A stretch of 64,000 nucleotides of DNA. It comes from Malacoraja senta (taxonomy: Eukaryota). A program made the position numbers and the translations under genes. The notes beneath the pieces are model-generated. The model made no database searches, was not told the DNA's origin, and was given only the letters and a program-made list of their open reading frames with translations. Shown one piece after another: positions 11,830-54,918 of the stretch (within the stretch, counting starts at the first letter, position 1; each line of letters opens with the position of its first letter). Location: contig CM075989.1 of the NCBI GenBank assembly GCA_038087875.1, positions 10,790,001-10,854,000 of the forward strand. Direction: 5' to 3'.

Positions 11830-12810
11830 TTTACTCCCAGATTCTTCTACTCTCTGGTTCCCAGCTTTCTCTTTTGAGATCTTTATCAGAGTGCTTGTCC
11901 TTGACCAAGCTGCTGATGACTATTATCTCCCAGTCTGCTTCAGGCTCCAGCTTAGTGTCAAGTTTCGTCCATAACTTGCCGTGGGACTTTTTAAATGAAA
12001 TTAACAGCGGCAGCAACAGCAGTTCCTGTTTTTGCAGGCCCTTTAATGTAACCAAAGATCCCAAGCAGCTTCCCAGGAATGTTAAGAAAGAAAGAAGAAA
12101 CATGTTACACGGGAGCTATTAGTAAAGATCCTATAGCGGAGCAAGATAGACCTGCTAAATGCAATGGGCTGACGTGTAGTATGCAATGGAACGGAACGTG
12201 GGCCTTTTTTTCATCCATTTCAGTAACCCGACCCGACCCGACTCGCAGTGTAATCAACGTTGCGGGGGAACAGCTTATGTTAATAAATTATAATTCTGAA
12301 AATGAGGAGAAGATTTTTACCAAAGAACTTTTATTTTTACGAGGATGTTTCCGTAACCGGCTTCCGTCTCCGCACTAGTGATCTTTGCTCCGCTATGGGA
12401 TCTTTGGTGTGGAGACGGAAGCCGGTTACGGAAATGAGGCCGAAAATTACCCATGAATCTGCCCATGACCGTACTACGTCTTTTTCGTCGAGAGGACTAT
12501 CTTGCTCGCTGTAGGATCTTTGCTATTAGTGCAGGGCACCAAAGGTTGAGAGGTTGGTTTGAAGACCGTTTTTTCTGGGAGGGGACACTAGGCTTTGAGA
12601 TTTAAGGAGGGGGTTCAAGAGTTTGACACCCAGGCAGCTGAAGGCTTGGTCACGAGTGGTGGAGCAATTACATTCAGGGTTACTCAAGCGTTCAGAAGCA
12701 GAGCAGCACTGAGCAAGTGGGGGTGGTTCGGGGCATGACTAGAATAACAAAGGGAGGAAAAATGAGACTCTGGATGGGTTTGAAAACAAGCCGGAGGATC
12801 TTAACGTGAA
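11830..12810. mobile_element. Degenerate L2 LINE 3' fragments (+ then -), interrupted by a MITE
   Basis: L2-type 3' motifs CTTGACCAAGCT...GTGTCAAGTTT and CAGGCAGCTGAAGGCTTGGTC...GGTGGAGC. Confidence 0.5.
12124..12522. mobile_element. Non-autonomous DNA transposon (CA..TG ends, 8-bp TSD; P- or hAT-like), copy 1
   Basis: TIR AAAGATCCTATAGCGGAGCAAGATAG / CTATCTTGCTCGCTGTAGGATCTTTG; TSD CTATTAGT at 12116-12123 and 12523-12530; terminal C missing on the left. Confidence 0.85.
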
Positions 12811-16368: not shown

Positions 16369-17624
16369 TGAGTTACTCCAGCGCTTAGTGGTTTTATTTT
16401 GTAAACCTGCATTTGCAGTTCATTTGTTTCTACCCTATAATTCATGTTTGATTAGTAAGAGTGTCAGGGATTTGACTGATTAGTAAAGGTGTCAGGGGTT
16501 ATGGGGTGAAGGCAGGAGAATGGGATTGAGAGGGAAAGATCGATCAGCCGTGATTGAATGGCAGAGTAGACTTGACGGGTCGAATTGTCTTATTCTGCTC
16601 CTAGAAATTATGAACATTTGAAGCAGGAATTCTGTTTACAAATCTGCTCCCTGGACACCTTCCCTGAACAAACCCCTTTGACAATGGGCCCGGTTATGGA
16701 TTGTGAAAGCAGAGAAAGAGCCAGCAAGCCAGACGAGAATGGCCACATTCTGTAGCACTTGTCCCAGCCAATCCAGGTGCCCCAACCTGTTTGGGCTCCC
16801 TGCAGCTAAACTCATACCCAATGGAGACCGGGATTGAGTTAAACCACCATCAAAGGTTAGGTAAATATGGCCGCATTCTTTAGAAGCTGTTTGGTCACAG
16901 GCCGTTGACTTTGCTAACAGCAGTTAGTATTTTTTCCCCCGCCCGAAGGCCTTGTTTGTGCAGAATTAGATCTGTTTGCTGAAACACCCGGAAGAATCCA
17001 ATAGTGCAGTAGTCTTTCCAAACAGTGGAAACATCCTCCGATCAATAGTCCCTATCACAGTGCTGATAAGTGCAGCAAATTGTGCCAAGTCTAATATTTA
17101 TCCAGCCTGCTATTGGGTACTTCTGGGTTGAAACAGTAAAACATTTGGCTTGTGGACACAAGGGTATAAAGGTTGTTCCAATTTAATACCTTACTTAGAG
17201 CAAACAAGGCAAGTAGACATACTAACTGATGAAATGTGTAATAGCAAACAGTGTACTTGTTGGTGTAACTTTATTGGAGGTCATTTAGCACAGAAAGCTG
17301 GGGCTGCTTCTGTTAATGTGTGTGGGTCGCTGTAAAGCATATAAAAACTTGGCACAGATTCTGTACAAAGATAGTGAGGAGGCAGATTTTACCCTTTGAA
17401 TTTAGGCCTCAGTAAGCTAACTGACATGGATAACTCTTACAGACGGTTGCATTGGGGTGAGGGGATGCTGGGTTGGGCTAGATGGAGGGGGAGGGGGAGA
17501 GGATGGGTAGATGTTGGCAGAATGCAGTTAAATTCATTTTCATCATGACCTGCCTGTCAATGTCAAGCCAATTGCAGACACTGAAATCCAGTTACATGAG
17601 CGTGGCCATTCCTGGTTGGTTTTA

Positions 17625-17905
17625 CTTTTGAGAAACCGCGTGGAAACAGGCTCTTCAACCCACCAAGTCCGCGCCGACCAGTAATCACCCCGTACACTAG
17701 CACTATCCTACACACTAGGGGCAATTTTACAATTAACAGAAGCCAATTAACCTACAAACCTCTATGTCTTTGGAGTGTGGGAGAAAACTGGAAAACCCAT
17801 GCAGTCACGGTGAAATCGTACAAACTCTGTACAGACAGCACCCGCAGTCAGAATCAAACCTGGGTCTCTGGTGCTGTAAGGCAGCAACTCTACCACTATG
17901 CTGCC
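17625..17905 (-). mobile_element. HE1-type V-SINE
   Basis: Reverse complement of consensus; its 5' head is included in the 580-bp duplication. Confidence 0.88.
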
Positions 17906-18401
17906 GTTATCCTTGCTGTATCTGAAGTTCTGTTAGATGATTCTCAGCCTCCAACTGCCCTTCCCACCCAGTAATTGTTCGTCTGTGTGATTTAACATTT
18001 TTTTATGAACAGAAATATTCGCAATAGAGACATATTTATGTCACTGGGACCTTCTGTAGGTTTTGTTTGCACCTGTTTCCCAGAGATTAATCTTTAATTC
18101 CTGAATATTCCGGATAATCCCAAAGGCTTGGCAGCTCTATAAACAATCCGGCAAGATTAATGATAACAACAACACCTTGTTTACACCTCTAGGTGTTGCA
18201 AATCCCACAACTCCACTCAGGAGATTTGAAAGTAAAAGTTTGATGCTGAGCAGCATAAGGAAATGTTCGGACAGACAGTCTAACTCTGGGACACATGTGG
18301 AATGGGTGAGGAGGATCCTACACAATCGTTTCTGGGATGAGGGATTTCAGTTGGAGGTTTAGAGTACGTTTCTACAGGTGGCATGGAGGCACAGGATTTT
18401 T
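17820..18401 (+). repeat. Direct duplication copy 1 (~580 bp) flanking L1
   Basis: Colinear with 19631-20216; identical ORF-track peptides at 18177 and 19992. Confidence 0.95.
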
Positions 18402-19630
18402 TATTTTTATTATTTTTTTTAAAATTAGAAGTAAGTACAATATTGTAGTACATAAGTACCTAATACACACTTAGATATTACAGTTCATGTACAACTTGTT
18501 ATTTTTAATTTAACAATAAAACAGAAAATGAAGATAGGAAAGATAGAGGAAAAGAGAGTATTGTAAAAAGTGGTGAAAGTGTTAGTTCGTGAAATAGTAA
18601 AGAAAGCCCGAAGAAAGAAACAGGTAAACAAAAAGGTAGAAAATGGTAAAGAGAAGGAAAAATAATGAAACAGAAGATAAAAGAAGTAGAGAAAGAAAAA
18701 AAAAAAAAAAGGAAGGAAATAAAAAGAGAGAGATTAAGAGAGATATACCTATTTAATAACTTTACCCACCCCTCACCCGGTTCTGAAACATTTAATTTCT
18801 ACGGTTGTGTTGCACCATATGCTTGTAAAAAGTCGATAAAGGGATACCAAATCATTAAGAATTGGTCTGCTTTACCTGCTAGGAGGAATCTCATGTCTTC
18901 AAGATGTAACATTTCCGACATATTTGAAATCCACATTTTAAGCGTTGGTGTAGATGCATTTTTTCAAAATTTAAGTATAGTTTTTTTTGCCGTTATTAAG
19001 CCATAATTAAAGAGAGATTTTTGACACGTAGTTAGCTTACATCCGTCTTCCATTGTTCCGAAGATAATCAGTTCTGTGTTGGGATTCAGTTTTATATTAA
19101 ATAGTTTTGTAAAAATTCCAAAAATTTCATTCCAGAATTTATAAAGTTTTGTGCAGGAGACAAAAGAGTGTGTTACAGTGGCATTTTGAGATAAACATTT
19201 GTCACATATGGAGGAGACATTTGGAAAAATGTTATTCAGTCTACTTTACGAGTAATATAATCTATGTGAAATTTTAAATTGAATTATGTCTTACATTAAT
19301 CAAATATTTGTGTACATATAGCAAGTATTTTTCCCATGTCTTTTGGATTTTTTATCAATAATTCTCGTTCCCAATCCATTCTAATTAATTCTGTCGATGG
19401 TATTTCTATATGTAAAATGATATTATATAAATATGATATTAAATTGCTTGATTCTGCCTCTCTGTTCATTCCTTCGTCTAATAAGTCTGAAGTCAGAGTT
19501 TGATATCCTTGTATATGTTTTTTCAAATAATCTCGGATTTGGAGGTATTTGAAATATTGATTACTTTTCAGGCTGTATTTTAATTGTAGTTGTTGAAATG
19601 ATAGAATGTTTCCCATTTCATACATATCTC
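18402..19630 (-). mobile_element. 5'-truncated L1-clade LINE (ORF2 C-terminus, 3' UTR, poly-A)
   Basis: Reverse strand: QYFKYLQIRDYL...WERELL and IQFKISHRLYYS*SRLNNIFPNVSSICDKCLSQNATVTHSFVSC (C-x2-C-x8-H-x4-C); stop at 18799-18801; T-rich tail at ~18397-18420. Confidence 0.9.
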
Positions 19631-20216
19631 ACATACTCTGTACAGACAGCACCCATAGTCAGAATCTAACCTGGGTCTCTGGTGCTGTAAGGCAGCAACT
19701 CTACCACTATGCCGCCCTTATCCCTGCTGTATCCCAGGAAGTTCTGTTAGATGATTCTCAGCCTCCAACTGCCCTTCCCACCCAGTAATTGTTTGTCTGT
19801 GTGATTTTAAATGTCTTTATTAACAGAAATATTCACAATAGAGACATATTTATGTCACTGGGACCTTCTGCTAGTTTTTGTTTGCACCTGTTTCCCAGAG
19901 ATTAATCTTTAATTCCTGAATATTCCGGATAATCCCAAAGGCTTGGCAGCTCTATAAACAATCCGGCAAGATTAATGATAACAACAACACCTTGTTTACA
20001 CCTCTAGGTGTTGCAAATCCCACAACTCCACTCAGGAGATTTGAAAGTAAAAGTTTGATGCTGAGCAGCATAAGGAAATGTTCGGACAGGCAGTCTAACT
20101 CTGGGACACATGTGGAATGGGTGAGGAGGATCCTACACAATCGTTTCTGGGATGAGGGATTTCAGTTGGAGGTTTAGAGTATGTTTCTACATGTGGCATG
20201 GTGGTGCAGGATTTTT
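19631..20216 (+). repeat. Direct duplication copy 2 (~585 bp) flanking L1
   Basis: Colinear with 17820-18401. Confidence 0.95.
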
Positions 20217-20221
20217 CTACA

Positions 20222-20525
20222 GGGCCGCTGGTGGCACAGCGGTAGAGTTGCTGCCTCACAGCGCCAGAGACTCAGGTTCAATCCTGACTACGGGTGCCGT
20301 CTGTACGGAATTCGTACATTTTCTCTGTGACTGCGTGGGTTTTCTCCGGGTGCTCCGGTTTCCTCTGAAATTCGTGCAGGTTTGTAGAATAATTGGCTAT
20401 AGTTTAAAAAAATTGTAAATTGCCCCCAGTGTGTGGAACAGTGTTAGTGTACGGGGTGATCGCTGGTTGGCGCGGACTCAGTGGGCCGAAGGGCCTGTTT
20501 CTGCGCTGTATCTCTAAAGTCTAAA
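20222..20525 (+). mobile_element. HE1-type V-SINE, full length
   Basis: GGTGGCACAGCGGTAGAG A-box, GGTTCAATCC B-box, tail CTCTAAAGTCTAAA. Confidence 0.9.
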
Positions 20526-20699
20526 GATAAAGATGATTGAAAGGCGATCTGGTCAAAGTTTGGAGGGGAAATTCCAGTCTCTATCACCTCAGGAAATTAA
20601 AGCACAGATGCCAGTATTGGAGTGATGGACATAGATTACAGAGATAAAGAGGTAAGGAGATAGACTGGGAGAGATTTAATCCAGAAACCAGTGTAATTT

Positions 20700-21155
20700 C
20701 TTAACATATGATGAGCATTTGACGGCACTGGGCCTGTACTCGCTGGAGTTTAAAATAATGAGAGGGGACTTCATTAAAACGTACAGAATAGTGAAAGGCT
20801 TGGATAGAGTGAATGTAGAGATGTAGGATGTAGAGAGGATGTTTCCACTAGTAGAAGAGTCTAGGACTGGAGGTCATAGCCTCAGAATTAAAGGACGTTC
20901 TTTTAGGAAGGAGATGAGAATTTTTTTTAGTCAGAGGGTGGTGAATCTGTGGAATTCTTTGCCACAGAAGGCTGTGGAGGCCTAGTCAGTGGATATTTTT
21001 AAGGCAGAGATAGATAGATTCTTGATCAGTACGGGTGTCAGAGGTTATGGGGAGAAGGCAGGAAAATGGGTTAGGAGGGAGTGATAGATCAGCCATGATT
21101 GAATGGCAGACTTGATGGGCCGAATGGCCTAATTCTGCTCCTATCACTTATGATC
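20700..21155 (+). mobile_element. CR1/HER1 LINE 3' fragment
   Basis: ACATATGATGAGCATTTGACGGCACTGGGCCTGTACTCG...GATGGGCCGAATGGCCTAATTCTGCTCC. Confidence 0.9.
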
Positions 21156-22024
21156 TTATGAGTGCAGGAGTGTGGGCATATGGGATGGTACAAATAGGTT
21201 GTATACAATAATAGATTATTGTCACGTGACCAAGAATTAGTGGGAAAACTTTGTGTTGCATGCTCTTCAGTCAAATCAAACAATACGAGCACAATAAAGC
21301 CACACACAAATACAAGGTAGAGCAAAGTAGCCAAGTTGTAAATTAGGGTACTGATGGGAACAAATTTCTTTAGCCAGAGGGTGGTGAATCTGTGGCATTC
21401 ATTGCCACAGACGGCGGTGGAGGCCAAGTCAGTGGTTATTTTAAAATCTGCAATTGATAGGTTCATGCTTAGTAAGGGTGTCAAAGGTTACGGGAAGAAG
21501 GGGTTGGAAGGGGAATAAATAGGTCAGCCATAAACAAATGGTGAAGAAGACTCAATGGGCCGAATGGCCTAATTCTGCTCCCCTGTCTTATGAACATGAA
21601 TTTACAGATATGTTGTGTGAACGAAGGGAGAACACGATTGGATCTGAAATCTATGATCAGGAAGGGCAATGCTACTTTGCGGTAGGTGTGGACATGGAGG
21701 TCATTGGGCTCATTGTTGGTGAGGTGGCTGATGGACAACAGGTCTAGATTCATACTTGGCACAGTGTAGCTTTGTGAAGGGTGCTTTGGAATTCAAGTCT
21801 GTCCTGATATCCGGTGATGCCCATTGAGACTACGTTTGAGTAGCGATGTGGCGGTTTCCTTCTTGTGTGGGATAGCAAATCCCTCAAACTTAGACCACCG
21901 AGCAGGGGGGCTGTAGATTGGCAGCGAAGTTGGCTGTGGTGGGATGGATGTTGTCTATGGGGCTGACATTAGAGCGAGCCAGAGTTTCTGGGAGAATACT
22001 GTAACAAATACCTTACAATTAACG

Positions 22025-22450
22025 TGTAGGAAGGAACTGCAGATGCTGGTTTAAACCAAACATAGACACAAAACGCTGGAGTAACTCAGCGAGACAGGCA
22101 GCACCTCTGTAGAGAAGAAATTGGAGATGTTTCGGGTTGAGACGCTTCTTCAGACTCTCCAGAGATGCTGCCTGTCCCGCTGAGTTACTCCAGTTTTTTG
22201 TGTCCACTTTACCATTAACAGCAGGAAACACAAGGTGCTGGAGGAACTCAGCGGGTCAGGCAGCATCTGTGGAGAAAATAGACCAGCGACGTTTTGGGTC
22301 GGGAACCCTTCTTCAGCCTGTCTGAATGGACAAGCGACCCGAAATGTTGCCTGTCCATCTCCCTCCACAGATGCTGCTTGGCCCGCTGAGTTCCTCCAGC
22401 ACCTTGTGTTTGGCTCCAGATTCCAGCGCCTGCAGTTCCTTGTGTCTCCA
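22025..22450. mobile_element. Two adjacent fold-back PLE terminal insertions
   Basis: GCTGGAGTAACTCAGCG.../...CGCTGAGTTACTCCAG and GCTGGAGGAACTCAGCGGG.../...CCCGCTGAGTTCCTCCAGC inverted pairs. Confidence 0.8.
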
Positions 22451-24315: not shown

Positions 24316-24812
24316 TAAACTAAACTAAACTATTGAGACCCCCAAATTACACGTGGCGGAAATTGAATTTTGAAAATCCTTTTTGTGAGATATAAAATAA
24401 AAAACTATTCACAAAAAGCCAGGCTCAGCTGCAGATCAACCATGGTGATTTTCAACTGTGAGTTTTTTCGATGATGACGCCGGCCTTGGTGGATGGGCAG
24501 GTAATAATAGGCATGTTTTTTTTAAAGCTCTTAAGTCATCAGAAAGTTTTTATTCAGTCAGTAACTCAGAAGAATGAGTAGACCAATGAAGCCAATAGTG
24601 GCTCTCTGCTGTGCTTTAAGTCATTTTCAATCATTTACACACTGGTGGAGGCCAGACATTTATTAATAATATTTGCAGCAATACATTGAATATATTTTAA
24701 TATGATTTCTGCTTTAGTAGCAATGTAAATCAGCAGCTCAGTGTGAAGGGTCGTGGACAAATTTATATCTGCTGAATGTCTGTGGAACTGTGGCCAATAA
24801 AGTCATTTCTGG

Positions 24813-24996
24813 TAGCCAAAAGTGCTGGAGAAACTCAGTGGGTGCGGCAGCATCTATGGAGCGAAGGAAATAGGCAACGTTTCGGGCCGAAACTTTGCCT
24901 ATTTCCTTCGCTCCATAGATGCTGCCCAACCCGCTGAGTTTCTCCAGCACTTTTGTCTACCTTCGATTTTCCAGCATCTGCAGTTCCTTCTTAAAC
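24813..24996 (+). mobile_element. Fold-back PLE mini-element
   Basis: ~75-bp inverted arms with apex TTTCGGGCCGAAA (~24886), 36-nt tail, 13-bp TSD AAGTCATTTCTGG (24800-24812, 24997-25009). Confidence 0.9.
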
Positions 24997-25495
24997 AAGT
25001 CATTTCTGGGAACGGATTAAATGACTGCTCTCTGGAGGTCTGGTGTTTTGCCCAAAGCTTGGGCTCTTGGGTGGTGTCTCCAAGAACCAGACAAATACCA
25101 GTCTCTCCAATTTTGCCATGACGTTCACTGTTGGTTGGACCTTCCCTTCAGCTGCTGAATGTTTTTGCCCTGCTCGGTGCTCATCTGTCACCTGTATCCC
25201 AACTTGGACCAAGTCCAACTCCCCCGCCATCCTTACGTTTGCAGAGATACATCCCTGTCCAGCCGTGCCTCATCCCTCCATGGTAATATAGGGACCTTTT
25301 CTACCGTTCAATTACAGCATCCACTCAACACCATTTTCCTGCCCTTTCCCCATATTCTTTAATCCCTCTAAAATCCAGGTCCATCGGCCTGGGCTTTCAT
25401 CAGACAATGAGGGTCTGTAGCTCTCCAGGGAGACAATTCCAAGGATTCACCATCATCCCAGGGTAGAAATTCTCAATTGTGTCATAAAACCCTTA

Positions 25496-28457: not shown

Positions 28458-29128
28458 AATGAACATGCATAATGCCTCAGGACATTGTGAGGAAGTCAGT
28501 GTTCAAGCAGCTCGCATGACCCGCTGAGTTCCTCAGCAGTTTCTCTTCTACTCAAGGTTCCAGTATCTGCGGTCTCCTGTGTCTGCCCTGGCATCTTACT
28601 GCATGCTCTATACGTGCAAATTGCTGAGAATAATTCTCACCAAATCAAAGTTCTGCCCGGTAAATACCTCATCTGCATCACAAAGGCCTAATAAGCACCT
28701 GTGAAGGATACAGGAGACACTGGGTAATAGTTACGCCAATGAAGGACTTCAGAAGCGTTAATTGAGAATGCTTTGAATGAATTCCAATTACTCTTCACAG
28801 CAATGAACTGAAAGGGCTGCTGACTGAACGGCATGTGTGAGTTGTGACACTCTAATTACAGATTGTTCCTTCAAGTCTAGTAACATTACTTCCACATTGC
28901 TGCCCACAGAAGGAACCGCAGTTGTTAGTGAGCACACTTCAAAAAACAAACTGCTCGAGGAACTCAGCAAGTCAGGCTGCATTTGTAGAAATAAGCGGAC
29001 AGGCAACGTTTCAGCTCAGTTGTCTTCTTAAGGCTGATTGTAGAAGTGGGGATAAAGATGGAAGAGAAGTGGGTGGGGTGGGGGGGTGGTTGGAGGCGGG
29101 ATATGGGCAGAAGGGTGGAAGACAAAAG

Positions 29129-29522
29129 CAAAGTCCTATAGCTGAGCAAGATAGACCACTCCTGCTAAATGCAATGGGCTGACGTGTAGTACGCAACAGA
29201 ACGGAACGTGGCCCTTTTTTTCATCCATTTCCGTAACCGGACCTGACCCGACTCGCAGTGTAATCAACATTGCGGGGGAACAGTTTGTGTTAATAAATTA
29301 AAATTCTGAAAATGAGGAGAAGATTTTTACCAAATAACTTTTATTTTTACGAGGATGTTTCCGTAACCGGCTTCCGTCTCCGCACTAGTATCCTATGGGA
29401 TCTTTGGTGCGGAGACGGAAGCCGGTTATGGAAATGGGGCCTTAAATTACCCACGAATCTGCCCATGACCGTATTACGTCTTTTTCATCGAGTGGACTAT
29501 CTTGCTTGCTATAGGATCTTTG
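29129..29522. mobile_element. Non-autonomous DNA transposon (CA..TG ends, 8-bp TSD; P- or hAT-like), copy 2
   Basis: ~33-bp TIR CAAAGTCCTATAGCTGAGCAAGATAGACCACTC; TSD GACAAAAG at 29121-29128 and 29523-29530; colinear with 12124-12522. Confidence 0.9.
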
Positions 29523-37307: not shown

Positions 37308-38564
37308 GAATAGGTTATGAGAAAATTGAATGGGTAATGGGATTACTAGGTGAGCGGGCAGAGAGTCGATGGGCCGAACTGGCTCCTTCTCTGTCAGAAT
37401 AAGATCTATGTGATCTATGTGATCATGGACCAACAGCCATCTGGCCAGACACAAAATGCCGAAGTAACTCAGCGGGACAGGCAGCATCCCTGGATAGGAA
37501 TGGGTGACGTTTCGGTCGAGACCCAGTTCCTTCCTACACAGATGGGGTTACACTTTGCTTCCAGCCCTGAGCCCAGGGCAGAGTGTGGGATGTCATTTGA
37601 CAAGGTGGTTTTGGTTCAGACATTAAATGATTCATGATAATCAGCTGTGTCAAAGGCATGACGCAACTTTTCAAAATGATTTGCGTCACTGGTGTGAATG
37701 TAAAACTAATTATATGAGGCTTATCTGAACACTGTCCCTCCCACTCACTGATCGCACCCTTTCAGCATTTTACCCAACACCTCCTGTGCGTAGGAACTTC
37801 AAACGCCTGAAGCAAATGACTGTCAAATGTAAATCAGAATCTGCTGAGGTTGACAATCTGGAATAAAAACAGAAGATGCTGGAAATACTCACCCAGTCAG
37901 ATCGGACCTGTGGGAAGAGAAACAGTCGGACTGCTCTGACAAAGGGTCTGAGATGTTGACTCTGCAGTGATGCTGCCTGACCTGCTGAATTTTTCCAGCA
38001 TTTTCTGTTTCTATGGAAGATAAATGCTGGTTGACTTGGCAGAAGCAGCGAGCAGTTTGCCCCACTTTCTGTCCCACTCTCCAACCAATCTGCTCCGCTG
38101 CCTTCCCCACTCTCTCCCCTGGCACTCTCTTCCTCCAGCTCCACTCACTCTCTCCCTGACACTCCCCCCCCCCTTCTCTGCACCCCCCCCCCTCCCGTTC
38201 CCACTTTCTCTCTCCGTCCCCACACTTTCTCCATTTCTTTGTCCCCTGTCTCCACTTCTCTGCCCCCCAGAGTCCCCCCCGGGTAGAATGGGTAGTAGGC
38301 AGGCAGTGGTGTACGGTAGTGGGGCAGTAGCGGGTAGAGTCCCCCCTTTATCCACTTCACATTCACACTCTCGCTATCTTTTCCTGTTTGCCTGAACTTT
38401 TCTCCATGTCTCCCTGTCTGACTCTTTCTCGTTCTGTTGGTCCCTTTTCCCCACTCACTGTTTCTCCATCTCTATAACTCTATCTTAATCTGTACATCTT
38501 TCATCCGCGGGCAGGAAGCCCCTTGGAGACAGGCCCAGCCCGACTTCCCCAGCCCGCTCACCCC

Positions 38565-38608
38565 TCACACACACCCCACACACACACACCCCACACACAC
38601 ATCCCCCC

Positions 38609-38647
<39 letters not shown>

Positions 38648-38800
38648 CCCACACACCCCACACACCCCACACACACACACCCCCCACACACACACCCCAC
38701 ACACACACACCCCACACACACACACCCCACACACACCCCACACACCCCACACACACACACCCCACACACACACACACACACTCCCCACACACACACACAC

Positions 38801-38833
<33 letters not shown>

Positions 38834-38850
38834 CACACACACATCTCCCC

Positions 38851-38883
<33 letters not shown>

Positions 38884-38910
38884 CACACACCCCACACACA
38901 CACACCCCCC

Positions 38911-38971
<61 letters not shown>

Positions 38972-38984
38972 ACACCCACACCCA

Positions 38985-39029
<45 letters not shown>

Positions 39030-39046
39030 CACACACACACACCCCA
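38565..39046. repeat. Degenerate (CA)n microsatellite with CCC interruptions
   Basis: Directly visible; ~480 bp. Confidence 0.97.
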
Positions 39047-39246
39047 NNNNNNNNNNNNNNNNNNNNNNNNNNNNNNNNNNNNNNNNNNNNNNNNNNNNNN
39101 NNNNNNNNNNNNNNNNNNNNNNNNNNNNNNNNNNNNNNNNNNNNNNNNNNNNNNNNNNNNNNNNNNNNNNNNNNNNNNNNNNNNNNNNNNNNNNNNNNNN
39201 NNNNNNNNNNNNNNNNNNNNNNNNNNNNNNNNNNNNNNNNNNNNNN
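39047..39246. other. Assembly gap (200 N)
   Basis: Run of N; round length indicates a scaffolding placeholder. Confidence 0.99.
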
Positions 39247-41706: not shown

Positions 41707-42105
41707 CATCATCATCATTGGCGGTCACTCAAAACGAGTATGACTGTCCTCTCCTCTCCATAAGGTCGTCTACTCGTGGGTCTGCAGATGTCTGTAGAGG
41801 CCGATCCGGGATCCACACACCTTGGTGCAACGTGGGCAGCGGAGACTGGCGGTGGTTGGTAGTTGTCGAGCCTCCTTCTCTCTCTCCTTACGGTGTTGTC
41901 GCTTTGTCTCTGCGACACGGCGTAGTTCCAGTTCGTGACGTGCAGCTCCTTCCCGCACGGATTTCCTCCAGGATCGCCTGTCCAGTGCAATGTGCTCCCA
42001 GTTGCTTGATGTGAAATTTCTTCAGACTGTTCTTGATGTTATCCTTGAAGCGTTTCTTTGGCCTGCCGGGGGCTCGCCAACCTTCCTTCAATTGAGAGTA
42101 TTGAG
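41707..42105 (-). mobile_element. RTE-clade LINE 3' fragment
   Basis: YSQLKEGWRAPGRPKKRFKDNIKNSLKK and CPRCTKVCGSRIGLYRHLQTH zinc finger; (CAT)n tail at 41707-41718. Confidence 0.88.
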
Positions 42106-51745: not shown

Positions 51746-53224
51746 GCAATTACAGGCCCAATGTACATGTGTCATATGCAATTATTGATGACAGTGACAC
51801 CTCCGACACTAGGAGAAGGCAGCCCACACCAACTGAGTCCATGTCCTGCTGACCAAACCCTCCATCCGCTGGGCTCAACTGCAACTGGGTTGACGCAAAC
51901 CCACTGGAGAAGCAACGAGGGAGAGAGGAAGGGGAGAGGACACAGGTGGGGTGGGACGATGGCTCATCTGGAAACTAGACTCCGATACAAACCCGTTTGT
52001 CCAAGTAACCATTTTCTGTTGCAAATTCAATTCATTTAATTGATGAGCTGCAGTGAGGCCGTGTCTGAAGACTTAGCCCTTCTCCAACCTCCCCAGATCC
52101 ACAAAAGGCAGACAGGCCAACTCACAGATCAATGAGGCATCCTGTATGAGGTCTTTCCAAGTTAACCAAATCTAATAAAGTGCAACTCTGAGAACTGCTC
52201 ACAAGGCTTCATTACAATCTATTTGAAAAGCCAGGCTTGCAAACTTATTCAGCACGATCAATAACAAACCTTTAATTTGTGGATCACATTTCCTCAACCT
52301 CGAGTTGTCACAGGAAGTCACCTCGCTGAAGAAATGCACATGCTAAATCAAGTATAAAGGAGCCGATATTAGATTAGCCTAAGTGCTAACATGTGAGTGA
52401 GAAATCCTGGCCTCAGGTTGTACATCAAGGATCACTTAGAAATCTGCTACCATCCCCAATTAAATTACAGACTCTGCCGAAACCATGTGTGTGTGTTTTA
52501 CGGATTTAATGCGATTGTTTTTCCCCCTTTACTCTTTGGAATATGATCTCTGATTTTCAACAGATTATCAACATCTGCATGACAGCTGGCGTGCAAAGCT
52601 AAGATTGCGGGATTCTTTTTACATTGCTGTTACACATGTTTTGATATTCAATTGTAGCAGCAGCAATATGCGCAGTGTATCCAGGATTACCAACGCTGAC
52701 ACCGCCAGCCACCTCAACTGCAGTAGACAGGAAACAAATACAAACTTTTAATCAACAGCGTTTCACATTAATAAATAATTTCCCATTCCCACAGTCTCAC
52801 TACGGGGTCTCCGCTTAGATCCATCTACAACACTCTCTTATCTTGAGATTGGGATGTTTTTTCTGGCTCCAGAATCGGTTCTTCTTAATTTATTTATCTA
52901 CAGGATGTGGTTGTTGCCGGGACTGCCAGCCTTCGCCACCTGCACCAGATTGCCCCTTGTACTGCTCAAGGCCAACTCCATCACACAGCTGAGTGAGAAT
53001 GTCCTCATGACTCAGTGAGTGAGTGAGTGACGGTGCCAGTGCAGGGCAGAGGGAGCACAGCACCGGCACCAAGCCTCACGTGGACAACAAGCCTTGACCC
53101 GCGGCCAATGGCGGTACCGCCATGAGGGAGGGTCCAGGGGAAAAACAACGGACAATGGGGACCCGGCGTGAAGGAGCCGCCATGAGGGAGGAACTAAGGA
53201 GGAGCTGGCGTACTTTGTAACTTT

Positions 53225-53411
53225 TTGTTTAAGAAGGAACTGCAGATGCTGGAAAATCGAAGGTAGACAAAAGTGCTGGAGAAACTCAGCAGGTGCAGCA
53301 GCATCTATGGAGCGAAGGAAATAGGCAACGTTTCGGGCCGAAACGTTGCCTATTTCCTTCGCTCCATAGATGCTGCTGCACCCGCTGAGTTTCTCCAGCA
53401 CTTTTGTCTAC
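53225..53411 (-). mobile_element. Fold-back PLE mini-element
   Basis: Near-perfect ~77-bp arms with apex TTTCGGGCCGAAA; tail on the left; 16-bp TSD CGTACTTTGTAACTTT (53209-53224, 53412-53427). Confidence 0.92.
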
Positions 53412-54675
53412 CGTACTTTGTAACTTTGTCAGCGCCATAGGTGGCCGCTCCCACACCGTGACCTCGGCAAGGCACCAGTTCCCAAGAGTGAAGAAGGGTC
53501 TCGACCCGAAACACCACCCATACCTTCTCTCCAGAGATGCGGCCCGTCCCGCTGAGTTACTCCAGCGTTTTGTATCTGTCAGCAGCCAGTGGACCCGCAG
53601 CTTATGAGGCGGACGGAATCTCATTGAAGAGTCACGTGGGTCCGAGAGACAATCATCGTTGACTCCTTCCCCTACTGCTCTCCTCAATGTGATAGAATGG
53701 GTGTAGTAGTTTGCTCTCTTGGATAAATCTCATCCCACCTCACACATGAAGGCTTTTGCATACAGCGGGAGTTTGAAAGGCTCTCAAATGTCAGGTTTCT
53801 CAGTGACAGGTGCAGAATATTACAGCAGGGAAGAAGACTAACGTCCACCCTCCCCGGCTCACGAGTGCTGTAGCATTGTGCGAGTTGTGTGCTGTGATGG
53901 TGGGTGGTGTGGCCACATGGAGCACACACACAGCTGGAGATCTGGCCCTCACCTTCCATGGCCAGGAAGGGAAGGATTCCCTGCACCTTGTTTTGATTTT
54001 GGGAAAGATCGAATACTAGTGCTGCAAAATAATAGGAAGCAGTTGACCAGAAAGTAGTTTGCCATCCGATGGGAAAATTGTTCCACACCCTCCCACTCAA
54101 CATTTTATTGGAGCAATTCCTTGTCTCGATGGTTAGATTCTGGTTAGATTCAACCCTGGAACAGAATCAACATCTCATGCTGGGAAGTGGGAACTCACAG
54201 TTCCCATCTCTCCCTGCCACTTTCATACAGAAAAAAAGACTAGGTGCTGGAGGAACTCAGCGGGTCAGGCAGACTCTGTGGAGGGAAACGGACCAATGTG
54301 TCGGGTCGGGGCTCTTCGTCACACTGCCTCTTGACCGGCTGGGTTCCTCCAGCAGTTTTTTTTAACTCCAGCAAGATTCCAACATCCACAGTTTCTTGTA
54401 TTTCCATTTTCATGCCCTACAGTGAAATCTCCTCAAAGTACGTCCTCTTTGAAGGAGGGCCTGTTTCCACGCTGCATCTCTAGACTCCTCTTCTCTTTGA
54501 CAGGGGTTCTGCAGCACTCTCTCTCTCACTGCTCCCCCCCCCTCAGCACTTCTTGCCAGCCTCTGAATGTTGTCCATGTCCTTACTGCAACCATGTGTCC
54601 TTCCTCCATATATGCCTTTGATGCTATCTTGTTCCTTCACCATTTCCAGGCCTCCCAGGTATCGAGTTAGATTTA

Positions 54676-54918
54676 AGATACATAAAAGTGCTGGAGAAAC
54701 TCAGCGGGTGCAGCAGCATCTATGGAGCGAAGGAAACAGGCAACGTTTCGGGCCGAAACCCTTCTTCAGACTGCCCAAACCCAGTCTGAAGAAGGGTTTC
54801 GGCCCGAAACGTTGCCCGTTTCCTTCGCTCCATAGATGCTGCTGCACCCGCTGAGTTTCTCCAGCACTTTTGTGTACCTTCGATTTTCCAGCATCTGCAG
54901 TTCCTTCTTTAACTCAAC
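54676..54918 (+). mobile_element. Fold-back PLE mini-element with two opposed hammerhead-like cores
   Basis: ~95-bp inverted arms around an 8-nt spacer (CCCAAACC); 15-bp TSD ATCGAGTTAGATTTA (54661-54675, 54919-54933). Confidence 0.92.

Follow-up and report, generated by a model that had tools for sequence, protein, structure and literature searches.

Long target-site duplications (TSDs) of de novo human L1 insertions have been described in cell culture, in work that cites Gilbert (2002 and 2005). Among other non-LTR retrotransposons, the R9 and Dualen families routinely produce TSDs far above 20 bp as a family trait, whereas the skate case described here is one locus. The long TSD, or L-TSD (>20 or >100 bp), is a defined category (PMC4245944, PMC2666801), and TSDs >100 bp accompany up to 10% of L1 events in HeLa cells and the majority in NER-deficient cells, with one of 1,533 bp at a TTTT/c site (PMC5223499). 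The routes described include a distant second nick for long TSDs (PMC5223499) and, for L1 duplications, break-induced copying from the reciprocal end (10.1101/2024.12.14.628481) and sister-chromatid capture (PMC7058536), and recombinational loss between long TSDs has been predicted (PMC5223499). One genome survey collected TSDs of 5-30 bp only, noted that long L1 TSDs had been ascribed to HeLa peculiarities and stated that longer in vivo TSDs still needed study (PMC2912911), and another pipeline has a default TSD maximum of 50 bases (PMC3024322). Our literature search, with most subscription papers and supplements outside its reach (the supplements may list more), listed no cartilaginous fish for which an inherited L1 TSD >100 bp had been reported. 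Long L1 TSDs are already a described class, and the interest of this locus lies in its being a probably old germ-line case whose length falls outside the limits of both surveys.

The skate locus resembles the human L1 L-TSDs of cultured cells in having a 5′-truncated L1, a poly(A) at a putative T-run nick, a direct repeat exactly bracketing the insert and a TTTT/c site, and its 582 bp lie within their range of 217 to 6,765 bp in the rows listed (PMC5223499). Those insertions are fresh, engineered and enriched in NER-deficient cells, whereas the skate locus is endogenous, with copies that are 4.4% diverged and probably partly converted. The insertion most likely duplicated about 30 times more DNA than is usual. 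The earlier note on this DNA had set the locus against the normal L1 TSD of roughly 7-20 bp, a contrast that leaves out the TSDs of hundreds to thousands of bases already described. Tandem duplications mediated by L1, known from tumour genomes and from L1-induced clones, are somatic and extend from 1-10 kb to 22.6 Mb, whereas the skate duplication is germ-line and 0.58 kb long (10.1101/2024.12.14.628481, PMC7058536).

Three further systems share some of these features. The zebrafish LINE ZfL2-2 produced a 1,228-bp TSD in DT40 cells in 1 of 25 wild-type events, and is alike as a fish LINE with a kilobase-scale TSD while differing in belonging to the L2 clade and in being engineered in chicken cells (PMC2666801). 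HERV-K (HML-2) has left TSDs of 250 bp and 111 bp in the human germ line, one at a site common to other primates; these are likewise inherited and unusually long, but they are shorter and belong to an integrase-based LTR element (PMC5488345). Repair-mediated duplications, in which proximal DNA is captured by SDSA, are germ-line, closely linked and up to 619 bp long, with microhomology, filler or a 1-15-nt deletion at the acceptor ends; unlike the skate locus, the 39 proximal cases examined all lacked a poly(A/T) tract, and their ends are not set by the two ends of a retroelement (PMC2671141). At the skate locus, the poly(A) belongs to the L1 rather than to copy 2, and the junctions contain no filler.

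Anatomy of the duplicated locus

BLASTN self-comparison of the window, that is, the whole 64-kb stretch of DNA analysed, aligned copy 1 with copy 2 (Table 1) at 95.56% identity over 586 columns (935 bits). This pair is the longest and top-scoring non-self match in the window, where the runner-up spans 407 bp at 89.9%, and chance similarity of the two copies was rejected on the same comparison. About 490 bp of the segment (17910-18401) had no other match in the window, even in a relaxed search, indicating that the copies are not two members of a dispersed repeat. The inner ends of this direct repeat (>100 bp) are, to the base, the two L1 junctions, at which no short TSD or filler was found: there was no direct repeat of at least 6 bases, and the longest shared word, of 5 bases, was out of register. 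Copy 1, L1 and copy 2 are gap-free in the assembly, the nearest N-run being the window's sole one, about 19 kb away (39047-39246). By global alignment, the copies differ in 26 columns that correspond to 23 events, unevenly distributed: 17 fall within the opening 241 bp, a single one within the following 306 bp and 5 within the final 35 bp. The earlier note had placed an L1 exactly between two copies of about 580 bp, with its poly-A abutting the T-run at the end of copy 1 and with copy 2 starting abruptly inside a SINE at the L1 5′ junction, and the alignments bear out all of this: 95.6% identity over 586 columns around a 1,229-bp insert with no gap, 16 T in 20 bases beside a run of 5 T common to both copies, and a copy 2 that begins about 88 bases into the SINE head.

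Table 1 Features of the duplicated locus (window positions)
Feature	Position	Strand	Remarks
Copy 1 of the duplicated target	17820..18401	.	582 bp; adjoins the poly(A) end of the L1; 5 T at its end
Copy 2 of the duplicated target	19631..20216	.	586 bp; abuts the L1 where its 5′ part is truncated
Near-identical core, copy 1	18061..18366	.	1 difference in 306 bp vs copy 2; candidate gene-conversion tract
Near-identical core, copy 2	19876..20181	.	From the copy alignment
Old tRNA-type SINE, left	17621..17907	-	16.5% from the majority sequence of the window's 13 other copies
Old SINE, right	20222..20527	+	Begins 5 bases past copy 2; 14.2% from the in-window majority sequence
Putative first-strand nick site, pre-insertion allele	20212..20220	+	T-run then C (TTTT/C); nick between 20216 and 20217, as predicted from target-primed reverse transcription
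Degenerate poly(A) tail of the L1	18402..18421	-	Plus strand has 16 T in 20 bases; fused to the copy 1 T-run
L1 3′ UTR (approximate limits)	18422..18798	-	Between ORF2 stop and tail; multi-copy depth in 4 of 4 runs
5′-truncated ORF2 C-terminal remnant	18799..19630	-	CCHC-type zinc-binding stretch; frameshifts near 19345 and 19285; 2 internal stops

The insert (18402-19630, minus strand, 1,229 bp) codes for the C-terminal part of a LINE ORF2, interrupted by two frameshifts and two internal stops, and the endonuclease and reverse-transcriptase domains are absent from it, having been lost, like ORF1, by 5′ truncation. We take it to be an L1 partly on the strength of fish L1 ORF2 motifs. A protein search found five homologs among 77 candidates, 65-72% identical, two of the five from Leucoraja erinacea and all either unnamed or annotated as 'uncharacterized', and tblastn aligned the ORF2 remnant with these five at 52-75% identity in up to three frames. 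The two Leucoraja homologs are in keeping with a host among the skates and rays. The Pfam family zf-RVT was detected at E 0.026 in the window piece and at E 1e-4 in two of the three homologs scanned, all below the curated cut-off. Depth over the L1 region (18440-19615) ranged from hundreds to >100,000 in all four public runs described below, except for two cells of 75 and 88, and the insert belongs to a multi-copy dispersed family with a poly(A) end. At the L1 5′ junction, G or R precedes DMYEMG in the homologs, a comparison that suggests that L1 sequence extends to the junction within one or two bases. An exact 24-base L1 pattern had no match in metagenome contigs. The 3′ end of the L1 (18399-18527) is weakly self-complementary, at 67% over 126 bases (E 3e-8), probably through its A/T-rich composition.

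The left breakpoint of the duplication lies within the left SINE, presumably of the HE1 family, about 88 bases from the SINE 5′ end, and the SINE is intact upstream of copy 1. Recombination between the two flanking SINEs was rejected as the origin of the duplication: they lie in opposite orientation and the breakpoints are out of register within them. By its divergence, the right SINE is older than the duplication, and since both SINEs (16.5% and 14.2%) are far older than the copies, which are 4.4% apart, the pre-insertion allele probably consisted of SINE, unique DNA, T-run and SINE, in that order. The nick site proposed on this allele is TTTT/C as against the consensus TTTT/A, from which the element family's own preference may differ, and TTTT/c sites occur among the long-TSD L1 insertions in Table 1 of PMC5223499.

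The segment in related organisms

Contigs of four public runs, taken from 24 matching runs, were compared with positions 17180-19690, a reference that takes in copy 1, the L1 and the start of copy 2 and ends at 19690. The runs were X19 and X20 (two samples of organism G, the nearest organism, word share 0.57 and 0.54), X21 (organism H) and X1 (organism A), with word shares of at most 0.26 outside organism G. The comparison used 40 of 131 difference rows, 15 of 565 joints and 24 of 2,519 loose ends, and 88-91% of X20 and X21 was read; neither L1 junction was among the contig joints or loose ends so listed, and the T-rich tail lay outside the comparison. Graph simplification of the SPAdes type removes short variant paths. 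The run contigs derive from a 31-mer graph simplified by SPAdes heuristics (10.1101/2024.07.30.605881).

The left flank of the segment in the window differed from X21 at 11 of 449 bases plus 3 indels and from X1 at 9 of 449 bases plus 3 indels. In X21, the segment was found as one unforked contig covering 17877-18388 with 50 further letters, 37 of them past the point at which two copies would be obliged to fork; in X1, it was likewise one unforked contig, covering 17881-18388 with 52 further letters, 39 of them past that point. A single contig that runs unforked past the fork point indicates that X21 and X1 each carry one copy of the segment. Ten of the 23 copy-diagnostic events had a listed difference row, and at these, X21 resembled copy 2 at eight and copy 1 at two, while X1 resembled copy 2 at seven and copy 1 at two and had a deletion at one. 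Such a mixture of copy-1 and copy-2 letters is expected of an ancestral, pre-insertion allele, and is expected equally after reversion to a solo copy. The 37-39 letters past the segment fit the 5 spacer bases plus about 30 bases into the right SINE, and the same contigs enter the left SINE by 26-30 bases. These letters could thus be right SINE, with the absence of the L1 following from that assignment, or could instead be L1 tail. The search for an empty ortholog that the earlier note had proposed came out as predicted, so far as contigs show, with a single unforked copy and an ancestral letter mix in both X21 and X1, and the ortholog that it had named as refuting, a tandem duplication without L1, was not seen in the four runs.

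Divergence of the copies and of the L1

Divided equally, the 4.4% divergence between the copies amounts to about 2.2% for each. For the L1, a rough upper bound of 5.2-5.5% from its family was obtained from the 64-67 difference places remaining for SINE plus L1 after removal of flank and unique-segment rows; the left SINE alone is off its majority sequence at 48 sites, which leaves the L1 itself at probably 1-2%. The ages of L1 and duplication would then agree, also with the 9 and 11 substitutions in 449 flank bases that separate the window from the outgroups, within bounds that are loose and blurred by conversion. Over 17907-18060, three-way distances were 11 between copy 1 and copy 2, 11 between copy 1 and X21 and 8 between copy 2 and X21 (two copy-2 changes being deduced from X20), and these distances point to an event of about the same age as the separation from organisms H and A. 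The greater distance between the copies (11) than between copy 2 and X21 (8) goes against a strict clock, but the difference is not significant (p 0.55).

The core of the segment (18061-18366) departs from this pattern, with its one difference between the copies as against 11 places that differ from X21. X21 differs at these 11 places in 306 bp and at 4 in the 155 bp to the left of the core (post hoc Fisher p 0.0006). Label permutation gave p 0.002 for the core, and p 0.11 when changes within 10 bp were merged, with 6 of the 27 X21 differences outside the test; position-only tests gave 1e-5 and 0.056. This pattern suggests that gene conversion between the copies has homogenised a core of about 300 bp, which is likely rather than proven. 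A low mutation rate is unlikely to lie behind the identical core, given the 11 places at which X21 differs there, although the test weakens to p 0.11 after merging, and collapse during polishing is also unlikely, organism G having no long parallel contig there. Derived changes number 11 in copy 1 and 5 in copy 2 (p 0.21; 11 vs 6 with the junction base), an excess that is not significant and gives no ground for a reading by mutagenic synthesis.

The segment (17877-18388, copy 1) has roughly double the divergence from the outgroups that the left flank (17180-17628) has: 5.3% vs 2.4% for X21 (27/512 vs 11/449, p 0.03) and 4.9% vs 2.0% for X1 (25/508 vs 9/449, p 0.02). Either a constrained flank or a faster-mutating segment might account for the excess.

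Origin of the duplication

We consider it probable, with moderate confidence, that one germ-line L1 retrotransposition event made the 582-bp target-site duplication. The observed part of this reading is the order of copy, poly(A) tail, truncated L1 and copy, together with the single-copy state in two related organisms. The L1 endonuclease would have nicked the plus strand after the T-run, the T-run would have paired with the poly(A) of the RNA and primed reverse transcription, and the cDNA would have stopped after about 1.2 kb, its end then being joined to host DNA 582 bp away, inside the old SINE, instead of 7-20 bp away. This far join might have come about by gap filling after a nick far away on the opposite strand, by break-induced copying from the reciprocal end or by capture of a sister-chromatid end, three routes that leave an identical footprint. 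The event would have occurred at about the time of the split from organisms H and A, after which the copies would have diverged while their central 300 bp or so were probably converted, and the insertion is probably inherited and old. Of the earlier proposal that a second-strand nick or template jump some 580 bp away made the insertion duplicate host DNA, the duplication of host DNA by the insertion is supported, while the distant nick is not separable from replication-based copying or from a two-step history.

Such a two-step history, in which the L1 inserted with an ordinary short TSD and the segment was later duplicated by repair, is the strongest of the alternatives, though we regard it as unlikely. 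A break in or near the 5′ part of the L1 would be repaired by invasion of the second short TSD copy or of an empty homolog, with 580 bp copied before the L1 was rejoined. The outcome would be structurally identical, down to the exact right end, since the short TSD would supply the homology. Vertebrate germ lines commonly contain proximal repair-mediated duplications of up to 619 bp (PMC2671141), an allele with the L1 plus one copy in X21 and X1 is compatible with the contigs, and copy 2 is slightly nearer to X21 than it is to copy 1 (8 vs 11), as would be expected of a copy taken from a different allele. Against this stand the need for two rare events at one site, where a single one is known to suffice (PMC5223499), the compatible ages given by the L1 and copy divergences, and the 37-39 letters that would be accounted for by 5 spacer bases and about 30 bases of the right SINE.

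Less probable again is a history that is compatible with one-step insertion but places it before the split from H and A, with recombination between the long TSDs then removing the L1 and a copy of the segment from those lineages, so that a solo hybrid copy was left. The distances over 17907-18060 (11, 11 and 8) fit a tree that groups X21 with copy 2, and loss of this kind is predicted in the discussion of PMC5223499, but the difference in distance is not significant (p 0.55), the interspersed letters of X21 and X1 are equally those of an allele that never received the insertion, and the crossover must sit in the leftmost 90 bp.

Organism G bears on whether the two copies are real. Its left flank differs from the window at 1 of 516 bases in X19 and 3 of 491 in X20, and each run has a 444-nt contig (17924-18366) that agrees with copy 2 at 7 substitutions and 1 indel. 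This contig terminates beside the differences at 17923 and 18367, which are the outermost permanent forks of the copies (naive chance about 0.002). Both left arms were found in X19, the copy-2-like at depth 6.4 and the copy-1-like at 3.54, with no right arm placed, and only the copy-1-like left arm in X20. At two sites where the window's copy 2 differs, X20 retains the copy-1 letter, indicating that X20 is not the window's haplotype. Segment depth over flank was 1.71 in X19 and 1.39 in X20, against expectations of 1.67 under two loci and 0.83 under two alleles; the ratios of 1.57 and 0.79 in the single-copy outgroups show that depth is weak evidence, too noisy for copy counting. The window's L1 letter was in no contig at 4 of 8 (X19) and 6 of 8 (X20) listed L1 difference sites, indicating that the window's L1 copy was not recovered in organism G, for which graph simplification may be responsible. 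Both versions of the segment exist outside this assembly, with the window's forks, and their phase is not given by contigs.

These data make it quite improbable that the assembly is in error and that the copies are two alleles of one locus, one with the L1, joined in tandem. The 5′ junction is absent among the joints and ends listed (15 of 565 and 24 of 2,519), the fork points shared within organism G would also be expected if both samples were heterozygous, and the depth of the copy-1-like arm in X20, 12 against 25.5 for the flank, is that of about one haplotype. An error of this kind would, however, require heterozygosity in all three individuals and copies 4.4% apart where the organism G left flank is only 1/516 and 3/491 from the window, and haplotypes 4% apart would be expected to give about 2% in a simplified contig. 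Furthermore, neither junction has an N-gap, the depth ratios of 1.71 and 1.39 are nearer 1.67 than 0.83, and an allele bearing the L1 should run on into the right SINE and not 582 bp back. Mis-joined haplotypes, which the earlier note had given as a refuter, fit poorly on these counts.

A head-to-tail tandem duplication with later blunt insertion of the L1 at its junction is the least credible history: the end of copy 1 and the start of copy 2 would form TTTT/A, the consensus L1 nick site, and the non-core part is about 8% diverged and would predate the L1 if conversion has affected the core, but the L1 must have struck one of the duplication's 12 consensus-type sites (5 of them strict) and left no TSD of its own, none of at least 6 bases being found, and no two-copy, L1-free ortholog was seen in the four runs. 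Both mis-joined alleles and a prior tandem duplication fit worse than the two-step history.

If one-step insertion is correct, an inherited 582-bp TSD means that such events pass through the vertebrate germ line and persist even though the flanking repeats should favour deletion. The locus also supplies a survey recipe, namely direct repeats >100 bp that bracket truncated L1s in shark and skate assemblies; a single case gives no rate. It is a conjecture to which we give little credence that long TSDs are a regular, uncounted germ-line L1 product in cartilaginous fish and behave like LTRs once fixed, through mutual conversion and clean deletion of the L1 to a solo hybrid copy, in which case organisms H and A could be revertants. 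If true, LTR-like long TSDs would provide a route of L1 removal that has so far only been predicted.

The locus shows no sign of a host function: Pfam gave no match in 41 of the 47 window open reading frames of at least 120 aa (the other 6, over the simple repeat and the N-run, being left out), and Rfam gave none in 16500-21500. To the left of the locus, about 1 kb (16630-17612) has no repeat match in the window and no Rfam match and is single-copy from 17180 on in all four runs; it could hold a conserved non-coding element. Elsewhere in the window, a young short repeat family (90-99% alike), which resembles a small inverted-repeat element, occurs in at least 8 places, often as inverted pairs (22065-22411, 24811-24998, 53219-53412, 54667-54916 and others). 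A 400-bp sequence is present in two copies 17 kb apart (12121-12522 and 29127-29522) at 89.9% identity and is probably a dispersed repeat, and a long CA-rich simple repeat (38560-39246) runs into the window's only gap (200 N). Finally, 41724-41987 has a 75% match to gene model P0005 in its N-terminal part (residues 21-109), outside the L1-like part of that model, which is probably a chimera of two repeats.
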